From positions 1 through 37,535 of IMG/VR virus record IMGVR_UViG_3300037467_001783: 37,535 nucleotides of DNA; one strand, written 5' to 3'. The notes below the pieces were generated by a model. The model ran no database searches. It worked only from the letters and a program-made list of their open reading frames with translations, and had not been told where the DNA came from. The DNA is from a virus (taxonomy: Duplodnaviria; Caudoviricetes). How positions within the stretch are numbered: position 1 is the first letter of the stretch; each line of letters begins with the position of its first letter. Made by a program: the position numbers and the translations under genes. Positions 9,189-37,535 of this stretch are shown here, one piece after another.

Positions 9189-10166
9189 ATGGCAAAAAGA
9201 TTAAGAATGTTTGATGAACAAACTTGGGAAAAAGTTCATGAAGATAATAAATCAATTCTTAATGACTATATTCTTGAATTAAAATCTAAGAAAAAATCTC
9301 AAGGTACGATCTATCAATATACTGCTGATATAAGAGCATTTTTTTGTTGGGTTCATGATAATTTAAAAAATAAACCTATTCTTGAATTAAAGAAAAGAGA
9401 TTTTCGTAAGTTTTTCTTATTCCTTGAAGAGAAATCACCTGCTCGTATCAACCGAGTTCAGTGCTCAATTCGTAATTTATTAGAGTTTTGTACTCAAGAC
9501 GATGATGAATATGAAGAGTATGAAATAAATATTATGAGAAACATTAAAGGTCTTGAGAAGGAAAAAGTTCGTGATATTTACTTCCTAACTAATGAACAGA
9601 TTGAAATGATTATAAATTACTTATTAGACAAGAAACAGTACCAAAAGGCTCTATATCTATCAATGTCTTATGAAAGTGCTGGTCGAAGAAATGAATTACA
9701 TCAAGTATTAAAAAATAATTTCCTTGAAGATAATAAGACAAATATTGTTCAAGGTAAACGTGGTAAAAAATTCCCTCTTTTATACTTTAGTAAATCTAAA
9801 GAAATTGCTAAGCTATACTTTGAACAGCGTGGGGAAGATAAAATTGATAATATGTGGATTGTTGGCAAAGGTGAAAACAAAAAACCTGCCTCCTATGAAA
9901 CTTTGTATAATTGGGTAATGGGTTTTAGAGATGTACTTGAAGCATTAACTGATGAAGATATTGAATTTAACCCTCACTCACTGCGACACTCAGCTCTTGA
10001 AAATTATGGTGAAGGTTCTCATTATGTATTAAAAGAATTAGGTATTGAGAAACTTGATATTAATATGTTAAAAGTTCTTGCTAATCACTCGGATATTTCA
10101 ACAACTGAGTCCTATTTAAAAGATAAAGGACAAGAAAAACTTTATCAAGCTCTAGGACTACAATAA
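9189..10166 (+). CDS. Tyrosine recombinase (XerC/D-like)
   Basis: SAM-like N-terminal domain; catalytic R (AGRRNE), K, HSLRH, ANHS and TTESY tyrosine. Confidence 0.9.
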   Translation: MAKRLRMFDEQTWEKVHEDNKSILNDYILELKSKKKSQGTIYQYTADIRAFFCWVHDNLKNKPILELKKRDFRKFFLFLEEKSPARINRVQCSIRNLLEFCTQDDDEYEEYEINIMRNIKGLEKEKVRDIYFLTNEQIEMIINYLLDKKQYQKALYLSMSYESAGRRNELHQVLKNNFLEDNKTNIVQGKRGKKFPLLYFSKSKEIAKLYFEQRGEDKIDNMWIVGKGENKKPASYETLYNWVMGFRDVLEALTDEDIEFNPHSLRHSALENYGEGSHYVLKELGIEKLDINMLKVLANHSDISTTESYLKDKGQEKLYQALGLQ

Positions 10167-10768: not shown

Positions 10769-11101
10769 TTATTGTAACTGAACTTGTGCTGCATTTGCTG
10801 AAGGGTTAGCAGCACTCTGCAAATCTTGTACCATGTCTTGCTGATATTGATTTAAGTCCAAGTTTGAATCATTGAAACTTAAATTTGCCTCATTAGCAAG
10901 TGCCTGTTGACCTAATTCAATCAACCGTTTTGTCATAGTACCTCCGATTGCGCCATGTACACGAGCGGGTAAAGCGCCTTTATCAATTTGGTCATAGTTC
11001 GCAATTCCAAGTTCTTGTGCGATTTCAAGCTTCATTTGATTCAAAAGGTTTTCAGAACCAGGAACCACAAGCTTATTTCTATTACCGCCTCGATTTGCCA
11101 T
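10769..11101 (-). CDS. Alpha/beta-type small acid-soluble spore protein (SASP) with C-terminal extension
   Basis: NKLVVPG...LNQMKLEIAQELGI...ARVHGAIGGTMTKRLIE matches the alpha/beta SASP signature; RBS gaggag. Confidence 0.9.
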   Translation of the reverse strand: MANRGGNRNKLVVPGSENLLNQMKLEIAQELGIANYDQIDKGALPARVHGAIGGTMTKRLIELGQQALANEANLSFNDSNLDLNQYQQDMVQDLQSAANPSANAAQVQLQ

Positions 11102-12033: not shown

Positions 12034-13221
12034 TTAGTTAGCCTTGAAGTTGTAAATTGGCTTAATTACTTCAGCAATCTCAACAGAATCAAGGATATTT
12101 ATAAGAATTTCATCAATTGGCTTATAAACTCCAGGTGCTTCATCAATCGTATTTTCATTTACTGATGAAGTCCATACACCTTTCATTTCACGCTTGAACT
12201 CATCAACTTTAATTACTTTTTTAGCAACACTTCGGCTCATAACTCGACCAGCACCATGAGGACCTGAAAAGTTCCAATCTGGGTTACCTTTACCGAAAGC
12301 AATAATTGAACCATCTTTCATATTGATAGGGATAATTACTCTTTCATCTTTTTGAGCCGAGATGGCACCTTTACGAAGGATCATATTCTCCATATCAATA
12401 TAGTTATGAATTGTAGTAAAGTGGTCGATAACTTCCCAACCCATTCTGTTAACTATTTCAGAAATCATTGCTTTACGGTTCCAAGCTGCGTACAGTTGAG
12501 CAATCTGCATATCATTCATATAATCTTTAAAACCTTGACCTTCCAACCAAGCAAGTTCCTTTTTAAATTTTGGCTTTTTAATACCTCTTAATGCTTCATG
12601 AATTTCTTTTTCACGACCTTGTTCTTTAAGTGTATCAATGATATGTTGCTGCTCATCTTTAACGCTCATAAGCTCATCATAAGCACGATTTTGGTAATGT
12701 TCTGCAACTGCTTTACCAAGATTCCGAGATCCTGAATGAATAACAATTATAACTTGACCATCTTTAGCTTCATTTAGTTCAATGAAGTGATTACCTCCAC
12801 CCAAAGTTCCGATTGATTTTTGAGCTCTATCCAAATTGAATGGACCTCTTACATTCTTAAAATCAATAAATCTTGCGTACTCATGAACAGATCCTCTGAT
12901 TGAAAACCCACTTGGAACAAACTTTCGAATAGTTTCATCAAGTTGGTCAAAGTTAATTTCACTTTTATTTTTATTGATAACTGCAACTTCCATTCCACAG
13001 CCTATATCGACTCCAACAAGATTAGGAACAATCTTATCCTGAATAGTCATAGTAGTTCCGATTGTACAACCCGCACCAGCATGAGTATCAGGCATAATCC
13101 GGATTTTTGAACCTTGAGTAAATTCTTGGTTACAGAGTTCAATAATCTGACCCATAGCAGTTTGTTCAACATTATCAGTAAAGATCTTTGCCTCATTATA
13201 CTTACCTTGTACTTGTATCAT
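12034..13221 (-). CDS. rtcB: RtcB RNA 3'-phosphate/5'-OH ligase (start revised to ATG 13221)
   Basis: MPDTHAG, VGVDIGCG, GTLGGGNHFIE, HSGSRNLG, HNY, RKGA, HGAGR, DEAPGVYK. Confidence 0.96.
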   Translation of the reverse strand: MIQVQGKYNEAKIFTDNVEQTAMGQIIELCNQEFTQGSKIRIMPDTHAGAGCTIGTTMTIQDKIVPNLVGVDIGCGMEVAVINKNKSEINFDQLDETIRKFVPSGFSIRGSVHEYARFIDFKNVRGPFNLDRAQKSIGTLGGGNHFIELNEAKDGQVIIVIHSGSRNLGKAVAEHYQNRAYDELMSVKDEQQHIIDTLKEQGREKEIHEALRGIKKPKFKKELAWLEGQGFKDYMNDMQIAQLYAAWNRKAMISEIVNRMGWEVIDHFTTIHNYIDMENMILRKGAISAQKDERVIIPINMKDGSIIAFGKGNPDWNFSGPHGAGRVMSRSVAKKVIKVDEFKREMKGVWTSSVNENTIDEAPGVYKPIDEILINILDSVEIAEVIKPIYNFKAN

Positions 13222-13222
13222 A

Positions 13223-13399
13223 TTATTTCCTCCCAAAAGTTTTTATTAGTTCTTCAAACCCTTTATTATATCTTTCCATTACAGCGTTGCCATTCAACTT
13301 GCCTTCTGATTGTAATTGTTCAGTTAATGCAACTAACATAGCACTGTTTGAAATTAATAGAGCTTCAAGTTTTTTATATTGTTTTTTACTAATCCGCAT
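13223..13399 (-). CDS. Hypothetical protein (58 aa; not in ORF track)
   Basis: MRISKKQYKKLEALLISN...; fills the gap between NTase and rtcB; ggagg RBS. Confidence 0.6.
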   Translation of the reverse strand: MRISKKQYKKLEALLISNSAMLVALTEQLQSEGKLNGNAVMERYNKGFEELIKTFGRK

Positions 13400-13400
13400 C

Positions 13401-14402
13401 TCATTTTGCCTCCCTAAAAAACTTCATCAATGGTACTTGTTCAACTGTCCATTCAGGTTTAGGAATAATACGACCTTCTTCAATATCTTTAACAAAATTC
13501 TTTACAAACTCTGGGTTGTACCACCAAATTGCAACTTGATAATTATCAATTGCGAAGTCCCTAAACCAGCCAGAACATAAAGTAGTACAGATCCTAAGTA
13601 ATGCACGTTTGTAACATTCAAAGAAGTCCTTACAATAATCACCATGTTGAGGGATTATGTATCGTTCAAGAGCAATTACATATGCTTCTTCTTGAACACA
13701 TTGAACTTGTTCTTTATAAGTTAAATTGAAGAACATATCTTTTGAGCACCAAGCCATTGAAGGATCAGGTTGCATTTTAGTATACATAGGAACATTATCG
13801 TGGGCCATTCTTTCGTGAATATGGTCATGAACAAAGTAACTTGTTGCTGCTAATTTAGAACTAAAGAAATCTTCTGTTGTAACATTTAACTTTGGAGTTC
13901 GCTGTTTGTTACGTTCTTTTGCTTCATTGAAACGAAGCTGATAATATTCTTGGATCTTACTACTGTCATTCCAATCATTGAGTCTTTCTTTTAACAATTG
14001 ATAATCTTTCATATTCTTCTCAAAATGGATCGGATATATTAAATGTGAGCGCTTTGTTGCCATCAAATATCTTGGTGTAAGAATAGATAACTCTTCTTCA
14101 AGCAAACCTTTCATTTGACCTTTACAAGCAATAGAAACATTATCAAGTAACCACTTTGATGAAGTACCTTCAAAACCAAGTTCAATTTCATATTGTACGA
14201 GCTTATTACCGAAAGCAGGTTTTACTTTTGCTTTATACTTGTTTGCGGATCTTGGAATTAATAACTGAATGAACAGCTTATTCTCAGTTTGCCACTTCAT
14301 AAATTCCTCCACCGACATGACTAAATCAAAATCGGTGGTAGGAGTAATACGGCCTCTCAAAGGCATATGATGATTTAATGCTCTTGAACCTATTACTATC
14401 AT
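13401..14402 (-). CDS. Predicted Pol-beta superfamily nucleotidyltransferase with conserved C-terminal helical domain
   Basis: N-terminal IGSRAL...DFDL (GS...DxD); C-terminal HDHIHE, EEAYVIALER, CTTLCSGWFRDFA seen in a widespread phage family. Confidence 0.65.
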   Translation of the reverse strand: MIVIGSRALNHHMPLRGRITPTTDFDLVMSVEEFMKWQTENKLFIQLLIPRSANKYKAKVKPAFGNKLVQYEIELGFEGTSSKWLLDNVSIACKGQMKGLLEEELSILTPRYLMATKRSHLIYPIHFEKNMKDYQLLKERLNDWNDSSKIQEYYQLRFNEAKERNKQRTPKLNVTTEDFFSSKLAATSYFVHDHIHERMAHDNVPMYTKMQPDPSMAWCSKDMFFNLTYKEQVQCVQEEAYVIALERYIIPQHGDYCKDFFECYKRALLRICTTLCSGWFRDFAIDNYQVAIWWYNPEFVKNFVKDIEEGRIIPKPEWTVEQVPLMKFFREAK

Positions 14403-23480: not shown

Positions 23481-23654
23481 TTATTTTGAATTTTTTTTCC
23501 ATTTTTCATAATTTGTTTTTAAAAAGTTATCAATCTCAGAACTTATCTGGGATCTAACTTCAGGAGTATTAGAACGTCCTACAAAGATTTGTAGTTTGTC
23601 CTCTACACCTTTTCTTAAATTATCATCTTCAGGAAATGCTAATGTAGTTTTCAT
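23481..23654 (-). CDS. Hypothetical protein (57 aa; not in ORF track)
   Basis: ATGA overlap with the glycosyltransferase stop; MKTTLAFPEDDNLRKG... Confidence 0.5.
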   Translation of the reverse strand: MKTTLAFPEDDNLRKGVEDKLQIFVGRSNTPEVRSQISSEIDNFLKTNYEKWKKNSK

Positions 23655-24850
23655 AGTTTCTTCATATCCCTTACTGCCTGATTAATTAAATTAACAAACT
23701 TTGCACCATTTTTTGGAAAGTTACTTACTTGAGAAATTAGAATATTCTTTAAACGATAATAAGCCTTACTATTACCCTCAAGATAGTCAATCTTAGCTTT
23801 CATATCTACAGCATCTTCAACATATAACCATTCAGGTACCTTATGATATTTAACCAACAAGCGGTCTTTATCATATGATTTATGGAAGAAAGGAATAATT
23901 CCATTTGTTACTGCTTCAACCCATTTACCTGAAATATCTCCGTCAATGATTGGGTAAGTAAAAGTATATTTTACGGATGGTAGGATTGTTTGTAATTCAT
24001 CAAAGGTTACGGAGCCTTTATACTTTGGATTGTCAGGCATATCCCACTTTCCATAAACAACAATTTCATTTTCTCCAAAAGCATCAACCACTTCTTGAAT
24101 GGCTTTAATACGTTTTTTATTATCGTACTGATGGAAGAATAAAGCAACTTTCTGGGTCTTTTCCTCATTGTGACGGAAAGTATTCCATTTACTATCAAGA
24201 AGATATTGAAATTCCGCATAACCATATCTTAGATCAATTTTATGTTTAACCATAGTCTCTTGATCTTCATATGACTTCATACGTTCAATCTCGATTTTAC
24301 CTTCTCTAACTCCAAGACTAATTTTCTCAGGATTTAAAAGATCACGAGCAGGTAAAGGCATATAACGACCATCTGAAGTTATAGTAAGCCAATCTATACC
24401 TGATTCATTAAGATAATAAGTGATAGGACTAACGTAATTAACGAGAGACTGAATAGGCGAACGGAGTTTGCCAATGATGGGTTTGCCAGTCTTTCTGTCC
24501 AAGCAATAAATACGATTGGGTATAGAAAGAGAACACATACCTCCATGAATGATACCATAATCTATCTCAATTCCTTCCAACTGATTTACAACCCAAGTTG
24601 TTGGATCATGTTCTTTTGGTTTAAACTCTGTCCAAACATCAATTACATTTCCATGAGGAAACCAAAAATCATAAACTTCTTTTCCAACACGACTTAGGTC
24701 TGATTTTCCAATAAAATAATAAGTATTATTTGGATTAAGTTTCGCAATAGCGCTGATTAAAATAGGAAACTCATTATTACCCGCTGAATCTTTCCACTTA
24801 TTACGGTCAAAGAACGTCGAGCGTCCTAACTTTCCAGTTACTACGTTCAT
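23651..24850 (-). CDS. GT-B glycosyltransferase resembling T4 DNA beta-glucosyltransferase
   Basis: TITSDGRYMP resembles BGT LFTDxRLP; VYGKW...YKGSVTFDEL...ISGKWVEAV...FHKSYD...LYVED..DMKAKIDYL parallels the BGT C-terminal domain. Confidence 0.7.
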   Translation of the reverse strand: MNVVTGKLGRSTFFDRNKWKDSAGNNEFPILISAIAKLNPNNTYYFIGKSDLSRVGKEVYDFWFPHGNVIDVWTEFKPKEHDPTTWVVNQLEGIEIDYGIIHGGMCSLSIPNRIYCLDRKTGKPIIGKLRSPIQSLVNYVSPITYYLNESGIDWLTITSDGRYMPLPARDLLNPEKISLGVREGKIEIERMKSYEDQETMVKHKIDLRYGYAEFQYLLDSKWNTFRHNEEKTQKVALFFHQYDNKKRIKAIQEVVDAFGENEIVVYGKWDMPDNPKYKGSVTFDELQTILPSVKYTFTYPIIDGDISGKWVEAVTNGIIPFFHKSYDKDRLLVKYHKVPEWLYVEDAVDMKAKIDYLEGNSKAYYRLKNILISQVSNFPKNGAKFVNLINQAVRDMKKL

Positions 24851-25533
24851 TATGCTGCCATCTCCTTTTTATATTCTCTAATAATCTCTTGAACTTTTAA
24901 CATTCGACTTACAATTTCTGCAGTTTTTTTACAAAGTTCCTCATTATATTTAATGTCTATTGGTGACTTAACCATTTCCTCAAAGTCATAAACGGTTAAA
25001 GACATAAATTTTTCTACTACTTCTTTAGTAGTTTCTTTTGCTACACGATTAAGAAGCAATCGTCCATCTTGATAAACTCTTTGACCCCAAGGTTCAGCAA
25101 AACCATGGTCAATACAAAATAAATTATCATTAAGTACTCCATAGTTACTACCATGCCTATCATCATTGTATAAAATTTCATCAAAAAGTGCAAGTCTATC
25201 TTCTGCTCCACTATCAAGTTTACCGCCATAGTTGTTCGCTGTTATAAAATCTTCTTCCCAAGTATGAACAGAACATAAATCATAATCTAAACCAATAAGT
25301 AGTCCACAATCAATGAGCTTAACCTCATTTACTGCAATTCCAATTGCTTGTCCCAATTTGTATGCAAAGTACTCAGCTAAACAATCTCGACTATCATGAT
25401 GTGTACCTGCCTTAATTAAGACTTTCTTTCCATTTGAAGTACCAAGAACTTTTGGTGATACTCCACCAATTCTTCCCCAAGCTTCATCTTTGCCTTCAGT
25501 CATTGTGATACCGTATTTTTCAAGGCTGCTCAT
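24850..25533 (-). CDS. HipA-like / PI3-4-kinase-fold kinase
   Basis: GGVSPK Gly-loop, LIKA, AEYFAYKL, DEILYNDDRHGSNY, IDHG. Confidence 0.82.
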   Translation of the reverse strand: MSSLEKYGITMTEGKDEAWGRIGGVSPKVLGTSNGKKVLIKAGTHHDSRDCLAEYFAYKLGQAIGIAVNEVKLIDCGLLIGLDYDLCSVHTWEEDFITANNYGGKLDSGAEDRLALFDEILYNDDRHGSNYGVLNDNLFCIDHGFAEPWGQRVYQDGRLLLNRVAKETTKEVVEKFMSLTVYDFEEMVKSPIDIKYNEELCKKTAEIVSRMLKVQEIIREYKKEMAA

Positions 25534-25576
25534 TACCGTTCCTCCTCATAAAAAAAATATCATCCAATACATATAC

Positions 25577-25605
25577 ATTATATATACTGAATGATATTTG
25601 GTAAA
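25577..25605 (-). promoter_or_regulatory. SigA-like promoter of the kinase-glycosyltransferase operon
   Basis: TTTACC-N17-TATAAT-GTATATGTA. Confidence 0.7.
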
Positions 25606-25623
25606 CTTTATTTAATTATTTTT

Positions 25624-25848
25624 CTACATTTTTTGAATTAAAAATTTAGAGAAGGTTCCTTTAACCATACCTCTTACAACTTTATCTTCACGACCAACAA
25701 TATCTCTAGTTGGTACTAAGACTTCCATAAGATCTCCGTGATAATATTCAAAAATTTCACTTTTATCTTGTTGGCGTGAAGCTTCAATCACTTCTCCACG
25801 CTCATATTTTTCAATATCTTCCCAACGTACAATTAAAGTTACTCTCAT
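25624..25848 (-). CDS. Hypothetical protein
   Basis: ATGA overlap with the nucleotidyltransferase gene. Confidence 0.6.
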   Translation of the reverse strand: MRVTLIVRWEDIEKYERGEVIEASRQQDKSEIFEYYHGDLMEVLVPTRDIVGREDKVVRGMVKGTFSKFLIQKM

Positions 25849-26609
25849 TCTAATTCCCCCGCATTAGCTTTTAAAAAAGCATATTGTTGTGCTTCAAATA
25901 AAGCATCTTTATTTCCACAATCAAACCAAGTATCAGTTAAAGGACGGTGTGAAAACTCTCCCCATTTAATATACTGATTAATAACATGGGTAATCTCGTA
26001 TTCTCCTCTAGGTGATAATCGAAGATTATCAATAATATCCCAGACATTACTATCGTAAATTTGGATACCGCAGAAAGCAAATTCAGAAGGTGGATTGTGA
26101 GGCTTTTCAACCAACTCACAAGGATAATCTTCATTATCAAAGTCTAAGATAGCAAACCTTCTGAGGGTCTCAGTATTCTTAAATTGCTTTGTACTAATTA
26201 AACACCCTACACCTTCATTACCGTACTGATATTCTTTTAGGAATGGTTCTAACTTGTCATACATGATATTATCAGCACAAAGAACTACAATTTTACTATC
26301 CCCTGCCCAGTATTGAGCTTGTTGTAAAGCATTAGGAACTCCCATCGGTCGATCTTGATAAAAGTATGTAAATCTAACTCCATACTTATTACCTGACTTA
26401 AGGTAATCCATTGTTTCTCCTGCTGATTTAGTTCCAAGAATAATAGCAATATCTTTAATTCCTGCTTCAGCTAAAGTATAAACCGAATACTCAATCATTA
26501 ACTTGTCATAAACCGGCATTAAGAATTTATTTGTAATATCAGTTAGAGGGGACAATCGAGAACCTTGTCCACCTGCTAAAATAATCCCTTTAAAATTCAT
26601 CTTCTTCAC
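25845..26609 (-). CDS. Sugar-1-phosphate nucleotidyltransferase (short RmlA/SpsI-like)
   Basis: GIILAGGQGSRLSPLT..NKFLMPVYDK, EKP, SPRGEYEIT, WFDCGN. Confidence 0.9.
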   Translation of the reverse strand: MKKMNFKGIILAGGQGSRLSPLTDITNKFLMPVYDKLMIEYSVYTLAEAGIKDIAIILGTKSAGETMDYLKSGNKYGVRFTYFYQDRPMGVPNALQQAQYWAGDSKIVVLCADNIMYDKLEPFLKEYQYGNEGVGCLISTKQFKNTETLRRFAILDFDNEDYPCELVEKPHNPPSEFAFCGIQIYDSNVWDIIDNLRLSPRGEYEITHVINQYIKWGEFSHRPLTDTWFDCGNKDALFEAQQYAFLKANAGELE

Positions 26610-27214
26610 TCATCCTCATATTTGACTTCAACGATAGCTTCTATTCCTGCAGCTTCAGCAGCTTGAAAACCAATTTGATTATCTTCAAATACAATAACTT
26701 CTTCAGGTTTAACTTGTAGCATAAGCATAGTATAATTATAAGCTTCAGGAGATGGTTTTGCTTGTCCTAAAATATCTGAGGTTGTAAGATGGTGAACATA
26801 AAATGTTAATCCTAAAGCATCAAGAATTTGTTGAATACTTCTCTTACGTCCATTTGATACAACTCCAATTAAGTGTGTTTCATGTTTGTCCTTAATAAGT
26901 TGTACTAACGTTTCATTCGGCTCCATATATTTTTCTAAGGTGAACTGTAAAAGTCTTTGTTTATCTCTTATAATATCATCAACTTTTTCAGCATAACCTT
27001 TTTTAACAACAGTTTCTTCCATTAAGATTTTTCCACCATAAGGTGCCCATTTTTTATGTTCTTCCATATTAAATGGAACCTCATTAAGTGAAAATGCTAA
27101 TTCATAAGCTTTATTGTGTGATTCCATAGTCTGAGCAAGTGTTCCATCAACATCAAATAATAAAGCTTTCTTTTTATTGATATTATACTCTTGTAAAATT
27201 TGTGTTAGTTCCAT
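26606..27214 (-). CDS. HAD-superfamily phosphatase (beta-PGM/YqaB-like)
   Basis: FDVDGT, VSNG, KPSP, FEDNQIGFQAAEAAG. Confidence 0.9.
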   Translation of the reverse strand: MELTQILQEYNINKKKALLFDVDGTLAQTMESHNKAYELAFSLNEVPFNMEEHKKWAPYGGKILMEETVVKKGYAEKVDDIIRDKQRLLQFTLEKYMEPNETLVQLIKDKHETHLIGVVSNGRKRSIQQILDALGLTFYVHHLTTSDILGQAKPSPEAYNYTMLMLQVKPEEVIVFEDNQIGFQAAEAAGIEAIVEVKYEDE

Positions 27215-28211
27215 TCTTAATCGTCTCCCATTCTTCTAATACTTCGTTTAATATTTGAATCCCAATTGCATAACAGATGGCAGTAATGGTGCCATTCTCT
27301 TTTAACCTAAATGGAGTCATTGAGATAAAGTGACTTGCTTCAAAGAATTTTGTAATTAACTCCCAATGCTCATCATGAAGTTCATAATAATCAGGGATTA
27401 ATGTACGTAGTGCTTTAAACACACCGTTAAACTTTTCTACATTATTGTGAATCTTATAATTAATTGTATCAGTTCTTCCATCAGTCCAAGCTGTATAATT
27501 TCCTTCATAAAGTAAATCATATTTTCCATGGCAAGACTGATATAATTTTGAAATATCATAATAAATACTATCTGAGCCTTCGCCACGAGGATCAATCACT
27601 TTAACTTCAAACTCATCTGCAAGAATGTTTTGAAAAGTAAAATCGCCATGGGACCTAAACCAACATTTAGGTTTTAACAATTCCATTAATTCATTATCAT
27701 TTATAATTTCCTCAATAAGCTTATGAAGATTCTTATAAAGTTTTCCATTTATATAAATTTCATCAAGCTTATAAAAATCATATGGAGCAAGACCTTTACA
27801 TCTTTCAACCATTTTCTTTAGGTGCTTATCTTTAATATAAGTAGACTTTCCACCATCATAAGAACCAAGTATCGGAGTAGCAATTTTAGAACCTGCTATT
27901 AAAATATCATGAAGAATCATTCCATCAAGATCATCTTCTTTTATGATATAATCTCTGAAACTATCAAGCTCAATATATTCCATGTCATAATAGAGAAGAT
28001 CCTTTGTAATAACACAAAAGTCTACAGCAGGAAATAAGTCTTTCTCATCAAACTCAAATAACCAACGCCATTGACTCATTAATTTTTCTGCACCTAGACC
28101 ATCTTTCATAGATGCTACTTTCCTAACTACTCTGTCATTTTCTTTTTGAATAAGGAAAGTTCGTGCCATACTCCCACCTTTAAATTCCTTTGTTATTGTT
28201 GCTTTTGACAA
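27183..28211 (-). CDS. APH/choline-kinase-fold small-molecule (sugar) kinase (likely TTG start at 28211)
   Basis: KGGSMART, VRK, HGDFTFQNIL, IDPRG, YDISKLYQS; the track ATG overlaps RBS ggaggtg. Confidence 0.82.
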   Translation of the reverse strand: MSKATITKEFKGGSMARTFLIQKENDRVVRKVASMKDGLGAEKLMSQWRWLFEFDEKDLFPAVDFCVITKDLLYYDMEYIELDSFRDYIIKEDDLDGMILHDILIAGSKIATPILGSYDGGKSTYIKDKHLKKMVERCKGLAPYDFYKLDEIYINGKLYKNLHKLIEEIINDNELMELLKPKCWFRSHGDFTFQNILADEFEVKVIDPRGEGSDSIYYDISKLYQSCHGKYDLLYEGNYTAWTDGRTDTINYKIHNNVEKFNGVFKALRTLIPDYYELHDEHWELITKFFEASHFISMTPFRLKENGTITAICYAIGIQILNEVLEEWETIKNGTNTNFTRV

Positions 28212-28242
28212 AGCTGTCACCTCCATTTAATGATACATATAC

Positions 28243-28271
28243 ATTATATCTACTTTTTTAAATTTTGTAAA
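28243..28271 (-). promoter_or_regulatory. SigA-like promoter of the kinase-HAD-NTase operon
   Basis: TTTACA-N17-TATAAT-GTATATGTA. Confidence 0.78.
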
Positions 28272-28291
28272 CTCAAAATAAAAACCGCGAG

Positions 28292-28744
28292 TTATGCACT
28301 CACGGCTTCTTTTTTACCTTCTTCATTATCAGTTAATTGTTCAATTCTTTTGTTTTTATTTCTTACTTTCTTAGCGATATGAATAGCGTCTTCATCCATT
28401 ACTTTATTAATTAGTTTAAGCAAGAAGATTATTTGATCTTCATTATAAAATTTAATCTTATTTTGTACAAAGTTTCCAAGTAATCTTGATTGAATATCAG
28501 CTTGCATATTTTTATATTCTTCATTACCCCTAAGTATTTCAAACATATTATAATTTTCTTTAGTATCCAAGTATAATGAAGCAAATGAGTTTTTATTAAA
28601 TCTTACTGCACCAAATGTCTTGTTCCTATCCGCTGTTTTTAAAAGCAACCATTCATTTTTTTCAGCATATACAACCTTGACATTATTCTTACACTCTTCC
28701 TCAATAAATGTTTTTACAATGTTAATCTCTTCTCTCATAGTCAT
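28292..28744 (-). CDS. Hypothetical protein
   Basis: gaggag RBS; 150-aa ORF. Confidence 0.7.
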   Translation of the reverse strand: MTMREEINIVKTFIEEECKNNVKVVYAEKNEWLLLKTADRNKTFGAVRFNKNSFASLYLDTKENYNMFEILRGNEEYKNMQADIQSRLLGNFVQNKIKFYNEDQIIFLLKLINKVMDEDAIHIAKKVRNKNKRIEQLTDNEEGKKEAVSA

Positions 28745-28960: not shown

Positions 28961-29146
28961 TTAATTACCTATTCCATATTGCTTTGCTTGTTCTTTTGTT
29001 AGTTCAACCTTTGTACCATCATCTTTAATCAAATACGAAGGTCTTTCAACAACCGTTTCTTCACCGTTTGGTCCGAAGGTTGTTACAGTTGAACCAATCT
29101 CAATATTACCAGCCCTCAACGTATTGCCGCTAAGTATTAATCTCAT
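28961..29146 (-). CDS. Hypothetical protein
   Basis: ggagg RBS; ATGA overlap with upstream gene. Confidence 0.65.
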   Translation of the reverse strand: MRLILSGNTLRAGNIEIGSTVTTFGPNGEETVVERPSYLIKDDGTKVELTKEQAKQYGIGN

Positions 29147-29541
29147 TTTGTTACCTCCGCAACATATCCAAGCGAAGGATCCTCTTGACGTTTGTAATTA
29201 ATTCCAAGTTTTTCTAAATACATTTCTTTAATAAGTTCCTCATCCATATCGAGGAACACTGCAACATTTGCTAAGAAGATTAATACATCAATTAATTCTC
29301 CACGAGCTTTACCAAACTGTTCAATCATTTTTTCTGAATCCCAAGTTGAATAATCTTTCCATCTCTTATGGAACGGCAACTCACGAAGCATTTCAATTGT
29401 CTCTTCAATTATTTGAGCGGAGTGTTCATGTATAAGAGCAGCGATTTCTTGATCGCTGTTCTCTCCGGGCTTGTAACCCCATTTTTGTTGAAACTCCGCT
29501 TGCTTATCCAAAATCATTTGTAAAGTTGTTTTTTCAGTCAT
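29143..29541 (-). CDS. Dimeric all-alpha dUTPase/dCTPase-like pyrophosphatase (likely ATG 29541)
   Basis: Q..FQ, EETIEMLRELPFHKRWK, GELIDVLIF, YLEKLGINYKRQ. Confidence 0.82.
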   Translation of the reverse strand: MTEKTTLQMILDKQAEFQQKWGYKPGENSDQEIAALIHEHSAQIIEETIEMLRELPFHKRWKDYSTWDSEKMIEQFGKARGELIDVLIFLANVAVFLDMDEELIKEMYLEKLGINYKRQEDPSLGYVAEVTK

Positions 29542-29556
29542 AATATCCTCCAAGTT

Positions 29557-37338: not shown

Positions 37339-37535
37339 TTAAGCAGTATAGTCAATGTATTTATGAAGGTTCTCTTCAATATACTCCTTACGATCTTTCA
37401 CTTCTGTCCCCATAAACATTTCAACTGCTTTTGCCATCTCTTCAGCATCACCAACTGTAATACGCTTTAAATAGCGAGTTGTTGGGTCCATAGCAGTGTA
37501 AGCCATCGTTTCAGGTTCAAGTTCACCAAGCCCCT
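37339..37535 (-). CDS. gyrB: Type II topoisomerase subunit B, C-terminal fragment (runs off window)
   Basis: Translated by hand: GLGELEPETMAYTAMDPTTRYLKRI...FMGTEVKDRKEYIEEN. Confidence 0.9.
   Translation of the reverse strand, partial: GLGELEPETMAYTAMDPTTRYLKRITVGDAEEMAKAVEMFMGTEVKDRKEYIEENLHKYIDYTA

Follow-up and report, generated by a model that had tools for sequence, protein, structure and literature searches.

A predicted 5-hydroxymethylcytosine glycosylation cluster with its own nucleotide-sugar supply in a phage genome fragment

The virus record IMGVR_UViG_3300037467_001783 is a single genome fragment of 37,535 bases (from here: the window), in which five genes on the minus strand between positions 23651 and 28226 encode a predicted glycosyltransferase (GT), a HipA-like kinase, an RmlA-like nucleotidyltransferase, a HAD phosphatase and an APH-fold kinase. 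An initial annotation of this DNA had claimed these five products, and all five genes were confirmed to be intact; it had also proposed that they form a new phage pathway that synthesizes a nucleoside diphosphate (NDP)-sugar and attaches it to a modified DNA base. Sequence comparisons and structure models lead us to read the cluster as a system for glycosylation of 5-hydroxymethylcytosine (hmC) in DNA with its own NDP-sugar donor, with a probability of about 85%. The genomes of close relatives measure 94–102 kb, so that the window holds a minor part of the genome and most of it lies outside. The features relevant here are:

23651..24850, minus strand: GT1, predicted DNA glycosyltransferase with the fold of the T4 beta-glucosyltransferase (BGT), 399 amino acids (aa), D160 being the predicted catalytic base
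24850..25533, minus strand: HipA-like kinase of 227 aa in one transcription unit with GT1, probably outside the pathway
25577..25605, minus strand: sigma-A-type promoter of the HipA-like kinase/GT1 operon, a phage-wide motif
25624..25848, minus strand: 74-aa open reading frame (ORF), last gene of the first operon; the close relative G001 has the gene of a second GT, GT2, in that slot
25845..26609, minus strand: RmlA-derived sugar-1-phosphate nucleotidyltransferase with an altered pocket for the sugar and 56% identity to phage G gp309
26606..27214, minus strand: HAD phosphatase of the beta-phosphoglucomutase (beta-PGM)/YqaB subfamily, 52% identical to phage G gp310
27183..28226, minus strand: sugar-phosphate kinase with APH fold, probably translated from TTG 28211, 48% identity to phage G gp311
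28243..28271, minus strand: sigma-A-type promoter of the kinase/HAD/transferase operon, the same phage-wide motif
28280..28310, minus strand: intrinsic terminator-like hairpin that ends the upstream operon
29143..29553, minus strand: all-alpha dNTP pyrophosphatase, candidate dCTPase, with a weak Pfam dUTPase_2 match and a match to T4 gp56
37339..37535, minus strand: topoisomerase subunit B, C-terminal part, cut off by the contig end

The two operon promoters are 83% identical over 41 nt, in line with the near identity pointed out before. A special co-regulation of the two operons is not supported, since the same motif occurs at eight places in the window, the upstream region of the DNA polymerase gene among them, and is therefore not special to this cluster. 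Translation of the kinase probably starts at TTG 28211 rather than at ATG 28226, because the latter codon overlaps its own Shine-Dalgarno sequence.

In the following, GT1 designates the family of the 399-aa GT at 23651–24850 and GT2 a second BGT-like GT of about 485 aa. The GT1 family comprises 747 clusters at 50% identity (E 0.001). For the analysis of gene neighborhoods, the best 80 of 293 matches from a scan of viral sequences for GT1 homologs were used. They represent 79 loci, which together with phage 9183 and the window were condensed into 40 groups at 90% GT identity. Among the genomes compared, G001 (locus L090), G002 and G003 are close relatives of the window's phage; phage G is locus L002. 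A scan of GTDB with the GT alignment yielded two distant loci alone and no integrated prophage of the clade.

Sequence searches with GT1 in Pfam (E 0.01), PHROG, NCBIfam and PDB gave no match. The AlphaFold model, based on 53 sequences, had a pLDDT of 94. In a VIA fold search against 48,161 chains, T4 BGT ranked first (Z 22.7, root-mean-square deviation 3.6, 306 aligned), followed by a PglH-type enzyme (Z 19.6), the T4 alpha-glucosyltransferase (AGT, Z 16.3) and the HY126 GT (Z 16.1). T4 BGT was also the first-ranked match when Foldseek was used with the GT1 model (E 3.2e-8). Moreover, the maximum hydropathy over 19 residues is 0.82; therefore, GT1 has no transmembrane segment. Both results agree with the BGT-like enzyme without a transmembrane segment that had been described for this gene. 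A GT1 profile of 145 members matched T4 BGT with a probability of 95–97% and T4 AGT with 0.4%, and the profile alignment pairs GT1 residues R247, E213, K309 and E312 with R195, E163, R269 and E272 of BGT, residues with a role in nucleotide binding, R195, R269 and E272 being UDP-binding. The aspartate D160 is invariant in 145 of 145 family members and follows a beta-strand within a D-x-R motif, as does D100 of BGT, the catalytic aspartate of that enzyme. Because of its invariance, the shared motif and the strand order, D160 would be the equivalent of D100 and the catalytic base. Hence, GT1 appears to be a sister family of BGT outside the Pfam BGT family (GT63 / PF09198).

The three enzymes of the second operon are candidates for the supply of the sugar donor. 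The kinase was modelled with an APH/choline-kinase fold (pLDDT 91.6), and all 48 aligned sequences share its residues K36, H193, D195, N200 and D212. The HAD protein matches Pfam HAD_2 (E 1.8e-24). The nucleotidyltransferase matches PF00483 (E 1.7e-40) and has a short RmlA as its best solved relative (E 6e-48); against the RmlA equivalogs it scores 161–172 bits, below the cut-offs of 320–361. Compared to RmlA, the window, L093, L003, L006 and phage G share a G-to-A and a Y-to-Q change at positions of the glucose pocket. The kinase, HAD and transferase correspond to phage G gp311, gp310 and gp309 in gene order, with the identities listed above. Together with the GT1 fold, this adjacent trio supports the predicted combination of a BGT-like GT with its own NDP-sugar supply.

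MupP, AmgK and MurU constitute a recycling shortcut that is built from the same three enzyme classes, and the initial annotation had transferred its logic, in which the phosphatase acts first, to the window. Here, the transferase reaches 71.5 bits against a MurU cut-off of 250 and is far nearer to RmlA, while the HAD protein reaches 33 bits against a MupP cut-off of 359. In contrast, a profile of the kinase gave matches to the Bas46 AfhE kinase domain (E 1.5e-15), to the fusion proteins of phage 9183 and locus L005, and to a HAD-kinase fusion in L062 (E 3e-8). We therefore abandon the MupP/AmgK order: the kinase is homologous to AfhE, which is reported to act before the phosphatase, so that a kinase-then-phosphatase sequence, as in the nearer phage homologs, is likelier. 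Searches of five records, some of which are incomplete, detected neither a sugar isomerase nor an epimerase. The kinase substrate is for this reason likely a sugar phosphate that already exists in the host.

Related phages were found to carry these genes together: kinase or nucleotidyltransferase genes lie beside the GT in 39 of the 40 GT1 groups. Classification by rule assigned 21 groups to a module with an AfhE-type transferase-kinase fusion, accompanied by a small AfhF-type HAD protein in 19 of them. A HAD-kinase fusion plus a cytidylyltransferase-like enzyme is present in 14 groups and the three-gene form of the window in three. Of the two remaining groups, L021 has separate HAD, kinase and transferase genes upon inspection and L048 is cut at the start of the GT. 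An ORF resembling radical-SAM enzymes (CxxxCxxC, detected by eye) at L021:8243-9145, between the kinase and nucleotidyltransferase genes of that cluster, suggests a further-modified sugar. In a GT tree of 40 rows, which includes L093 but not L048, at least nine changes of module type are required, compared to a least possible number of 4 and a mean of 16.9 after shuffling. An example is L005, whose GT1 is 68% identical to that of the window and is paired with an AfhE/AfhF-type module.

A comparison of two cultured phages provides a second line of evidence. The locus of Enterococcus phage VPE25 contains, in this order, genes for a deoxynucleoside monophosphate (dNMP) kinase, a thymidylate synthase (TS) homolog, dUTPase, a true BGT (42% identical to that of T4) and RNase H, without a donor module. 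Enterococcus phage 9183 has VPE25-like neighboring genes (47–87% identical), but a HAD gene, a fusion gene and GT1 replace the BGT gene. VPE25 DNA is described as cytosine-glycosylated, with resistance to bisulfite, EcoRI and MspI and sensitivity to PvuRts1I (PMC4999554). A fragment of a true BGT (44% identical to VPE25 BGT) is located at L008:4604-5006 on the same contig as a GT1 module. In addition, another GT (L001:16817-17788; L104:7001-7963) is found in 9183, VPE25 and Lactobacillus phages and is retained irrespective of the identity of the first GT.

Supply of phage DNA sugars by a kinase, a HAD protein and a nucleotidyltransferase has been published for two systems, so that the pathway is not new in kind as had been suggested. 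In the first, AfhE, with the kinase acting first, and AfhF make UDP-arabinose (PMC13326640). This arabinosyl-5-hydroxycytosine system of RB69, DLP3, HY126 and Bas46 resembles the window in its supply by the three enzyme classes. It differs in that no arabinose-5-phosphate isomerase was found in the window's clade (PF01380 in 0 of 5 records and PF13580 in 0 of 5, and no tblastn match in the window, itself a partial genome, or the other loci) and in that the TS homolog of the clade has D169 instead of N169. Furthermore, the tested Bas46 proteins gave no match to the GT1 profile, and HAD and transferase of the window belong to other subfamilies. In the second system, contig 53, a HAD-APH enzyme, a cytidylyltransferase and the BGT-like GT53 were all needed for mono- and di-heptosyl-5hmC in E. 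coli (bioRxiv 10.1101/2023.12.21.572611). This subclass III cluster shares with the window the same four activities, including a BGT-like GT-B enzyme, and the catalytic D152 that the same paper gives for GT94 lies near the invariant aspartate of GT1 (median position 160), GT53/GT94 and GT1 being likened here by description. The layout of contig 53, a HAD-kinase fusion with a cytidylyltransferase, is also that of 14 of the 40 GT1 groups. The 5hmC of contig 53 comes from a methylase plus TET, that of the window's phage likely from a dCMP hydroxymethylase; and the HAD-APH fusion and cytidylyltransferase contrast with three separate enzymes, an RmlA-type transferase and a beta-PGM-type HAD protein in the window.

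The alternative that deserves most attention is a donor of ordinary glucose, in which the trio would serve as a bypass that turns glucose 6-phosphate into dTDP- or UDP-glucose, for a T4-like glucosyl-hmC in the DNA. The transferase is closest to glucose-1-phosphate thymidylyltransferases, the HAD protein falls into the beta-PGM subfamily, and the lack of detected isomerases and epimerases fits this idea as well. We nevertheless regard it as unlikely, because the true BGT of VPE25 has no donor module in its locus, the sugar-pocket changes relative to RmlA are conserved, the kinase is a relative of AfhE, and the module of a HAD-kinase fusion with a cytidylyltransferase gave heptose in the published test. 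The first two of these points make a sugar other than plain UDP-glucose probable for the glycosylation of hmC proposed here. As to its identity, a heptose is our leading guess, through the likeness to contig 53, and even this guess is tentative; a pentose is somewhat less likely, another hexose or an amino-hexose is doubtful, and glucose itself comes last.

The enzyme that would prepare the acceptor base was found beyond the window. The contig is cut within the gene of topoisomerase subunit B. In G001, G002 and G003, a few kb past this point, there are a dNMP kinase gene, the gene of a TS homolog and that of a C5-methylase-like protein. The best solved relative of their TS homolog is the CMP hydroxymethylase MilA (E 4.5e-26), with TS at 1e-17 or weaker. 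In an alignment of 71 TS homologs, aspartate occupies ThyA position 169 in all 71 and position 177 in 70, and the DxxCT motif is present in 69. The signature D143/D169/D177 is the same in T4 gp42, while asparagine stands at the equivalent of position 177 in SPO1 gp29 and at position 169 in Bas46. Within this family, N177 is described as the specificity position, L143 as correlated with hydroxymethylation and D169N as the mark of a hydroxylase (PMC13326640). The search for a base-activating enzyme, which had been named as decisive for a DNA target, thus ended with a gene of the dCMP hydroxymethylase type in three of three close relatives, and this gene was matched in sequencing runs at the depth of the window's phage.

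DNA of this phage is present in 11 soil or rhizosphere runs, each of which is a possible source of the window; no RNA run is listed with them. In run X1, a contig of 22,960 letters extends the window at a depth of 29.7, compared to 29.3 for the contig across the cluster, and it fits topoisomerase B when placed on the G001 upstream region at 80% likeness. Three gene pieces of G001, two from the TS gene and one from the methyltransferase (MTase)-like gene, are also matched by a contig of depth 29.7, which is taken to be the same X1 contig because of the equal depth. In all four runs examined (X1, X2, X3 and X6, out of the 11 listed), contigs with the depth of this phage were matched to the TS and MTase-like genes. 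On a contig of 61,103 bases, the search with the TS homolog of a relative gave no protein tying it to the phage. Within the window, the 136-aa ORF at 29143–29553 matches T4 gp56 in a pairwise comparison (E 6e-7) and is conserved in close relatives. Its product is a candidate dCTPase that would clear unmodified dCTP. A separate ThyX is encoded in G002 and G003 (2 of 5 records), and no TET/JBP enzyme was found in five of five records, some of them incomplete. Across the GT1 family, a TS homolog with D169 and D177 occurs in the flank of 29 of the 35 groups with at least 6 kb of upstream sequence, and three of the six groups without it are G001–G003, where the gene lies further off.

The C5-methylase-like protein (L090:8905-10122 in G001; L002:17526-18806, phage G gp301) has a non-canonical motif I and intact PC, EN and QxRxR motifs. 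Its gene accompanies 32 of the 40 GT1 groups, although hmC would block C5 and TET was not found. This association could speak for another acceptor, namely 5-methyl- or 5-hydroxycytosine, 5-hydroxymethyluracil or a product of the C5-methylase-like enzyme. D177 alone also fits dCMP methylases, five of seven tested enzymes having made 5mdCMP (10.1101/2024.12.05.627091), and the TS homolog is 35% identical to the SPO1 dUMP hydroxymethylase. Such an acceptor is quite improbable in view of the match of D143/D169/D177 to T4 gp42 and MilA, the clear gp42 ortholog in T4-like GT1 loci (L041, E 9e-84), the TET/JBP result, and phage 9183 and its kin, which have GT1 and a flank without the MTase-like gene.

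A role of the GT in receptor masking or superinfection exclusion, by modification of a protein, teichoic acid or small molecule and perhaps with participation of the HipA-like kinase, is very improbable: PglH-type, BshA and PimA enzymes are the next fold matches and a protein-kinase-like gene belongs to the same operon, yet GT1 lacks a transmembrane segment, BGT leads by 3 Z units, GT1 is constantly linked to dCMP hydroxymethylases in unrelated phages, it exchanges slot for slot with BGT between 9183 and VPE25, and none of the distant loci has the HipA-like gene.

The HipA-like kinase matches Pfam with E 2e-5, below the cut-off, and an Atlas comparison gave TM 0.75 to HipA_2. It is confined to the window and close relatives (121 loci), and no match was found among cultured phages. 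Since it occurs only in this close clade, it is probably a passenger, and its earlier assignment to the pathway is not upheld. In the clade, its gene has a fixed position upstream of GT1; in L003 and L005, homing-endonuclease-like genes are located between the two. GT2 (L003:7020-8471, L005:5060-6523, L006:7772-9229) occurs in close relatives and five distant loci, matches the GT1 profile with P 94%, and may add a second sugar. It is absent from L093 and from the window, where tblastn gave a weak match to GT1 alone; the missing part of the genome could carry it.

The giant Bacillus/Lysinibacillus phage G has the donor trio in the same order as the window, and the system compared here also includes its gp319, gp301, gp313 and gp306. 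Its TS (42%) and MTase-like protein (45%) are the closest cultured relatives of those of G001. The trio genes of phage G sit between two AGT-type genes, homologs that have been noted before (PMC6024577; PMC13216743), and its DNA has been called derivatised (10.1101/2024.12.16.628780). In the literature searched, which left most subscription journals outside its coverage, we found no description of the gp311-309 module or of a sugar on phage G or 9183 DNA. Inside the modification cluster of phage G, gp315 (L002:6187-7182) is a nucleotide kinase fused to a domain of the uracil-DNA-glycosylase family.

For the window, these comparisons suggest the following course of hmC glycosylation, in a phage whose DNA likely contains hmC in place of cytosine. 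The TS homolog would convert dCMP to 5-hmdCMP, together with the dNMP kinase and the dCTPase-like enzyme, as its active-site residues indicate. By homology to AfhE, the APH-fold kinase would phosphorylate the anomeric hydroxyl of a host sugar phosphate, yielding a bisphosphate from which the HAD protein would remove the terminal phosphate; a mutase role of the latter is also conceivable. The RmlA-like enzyme could then form the NDP-sugar, probably from dTTP or UTP. Finally, GT1 would flip hmC and transfer the sugar with D160 as base, probably once, because the module of the window's phage lacks GT2. T4 (gp42, gp1, gp56, BGT) and VPE25 resemble this scheme in the BGT fold, the hydroxymethylase signature and the dCTPase-like gene, and VPE25 illustrates that a glycosyl strategy works in a Gram-positive host. 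The difference lies in the donor, which the BGTs of T4 and VPE25 (42% identity between the two) take from the host, while GT1 nearly always occurs with donor genes.

Several observations weigh against this interpretation. GT1 shares about 11% sequence identity with BGT, Foldseek ranks BGT barely ahead of unrelated GT-B enzymes (E 3.2e-8 vs 4.3e-8), and the profile alignments place BGT D100 near GT1 residue 148 and not at D160. For the kinase, the top rows of the VIA search were tied (Z 17.5–18.4 for MtnK, FN3K and APH) and did not reveal the substrate. The phage's own TS gene is seen as short matched pieces and the active-site signature was read in relatives, and the runs that match this gene may be the window's own source. 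Phage G pairs the trio with two AGT-type GTs and has no GT1; the trio is hence not GT1-specific. Lastly, C-containing 6-base palindromes have an observed/expected ratio of 0.80 in the window, with five sites absent, compared to 0.90 in T4 and 0.95 in SPbeta. This avoidance hints at incomplete protection, although the 4-base values match those of T4.

By analogy, protection from host nucleases is the most likely purpose of the modification. The cluster appears to be a variant of a published strategy, its value lying mainly in the sugar, the swappable donor cassettes and the cultured phages that share parts of it. A wider scenario is rather unlikely in its entirety: Bacillota phages, phage G and 9183 included, would coat hmC with a sugar new to DNA that is drawn from central metabolism without an isomerase (e.g. 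sedoheptulose or ribose as dTDP-sugar), via cassettes swapped at least nine times, and the degenerate C5-methylase-like enzyme would add a further undescribed step. The sugar could be measured in cultured phages, namely phage G for the donor trio and 9183 and Planchet for the GT, and the pair 9183/VPE25 is a natural BGT-swap control. Interchangeable cassettes bear on phage escape from sugar-specific defences such as modification-dependent nucleases and glycosylases. In addition, the GT1 family could supply enzymes for 5hmC labelling.

The remainder of the window encodes a contractile tail, baseplate, amidase endolysin, tyrosine recombinase, small acid-soluble spore protein (SASP), sigma factor, DnaE-type polymerase and topoisomerase. 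Because the endolysin matches are mostly to Bacillus phages (26 of 38 records), the host presumably belongs to the Bacillaceae. A Xer-like tyrosine recombinase (59–84% identical across the clade, conserved in four of five records) and the SASP gene are located at 9189–10166 and 10769–11101. A temperate phage with modified DNA was considered and dropped, as 9183 and VPE25 carry integrase-family genes, yet are reported without lysogeny (10.1101/2020.09.22.309401; PMC4999554). The four runs examined for the window's phage also contain, at low depth, a phage near-identical to G001 (L090:5000-16400). At 12034–14402 of the window, an RtcB ligase adjoins a DUF7277/DUF7275 protein, a possible RNA-repair pair.

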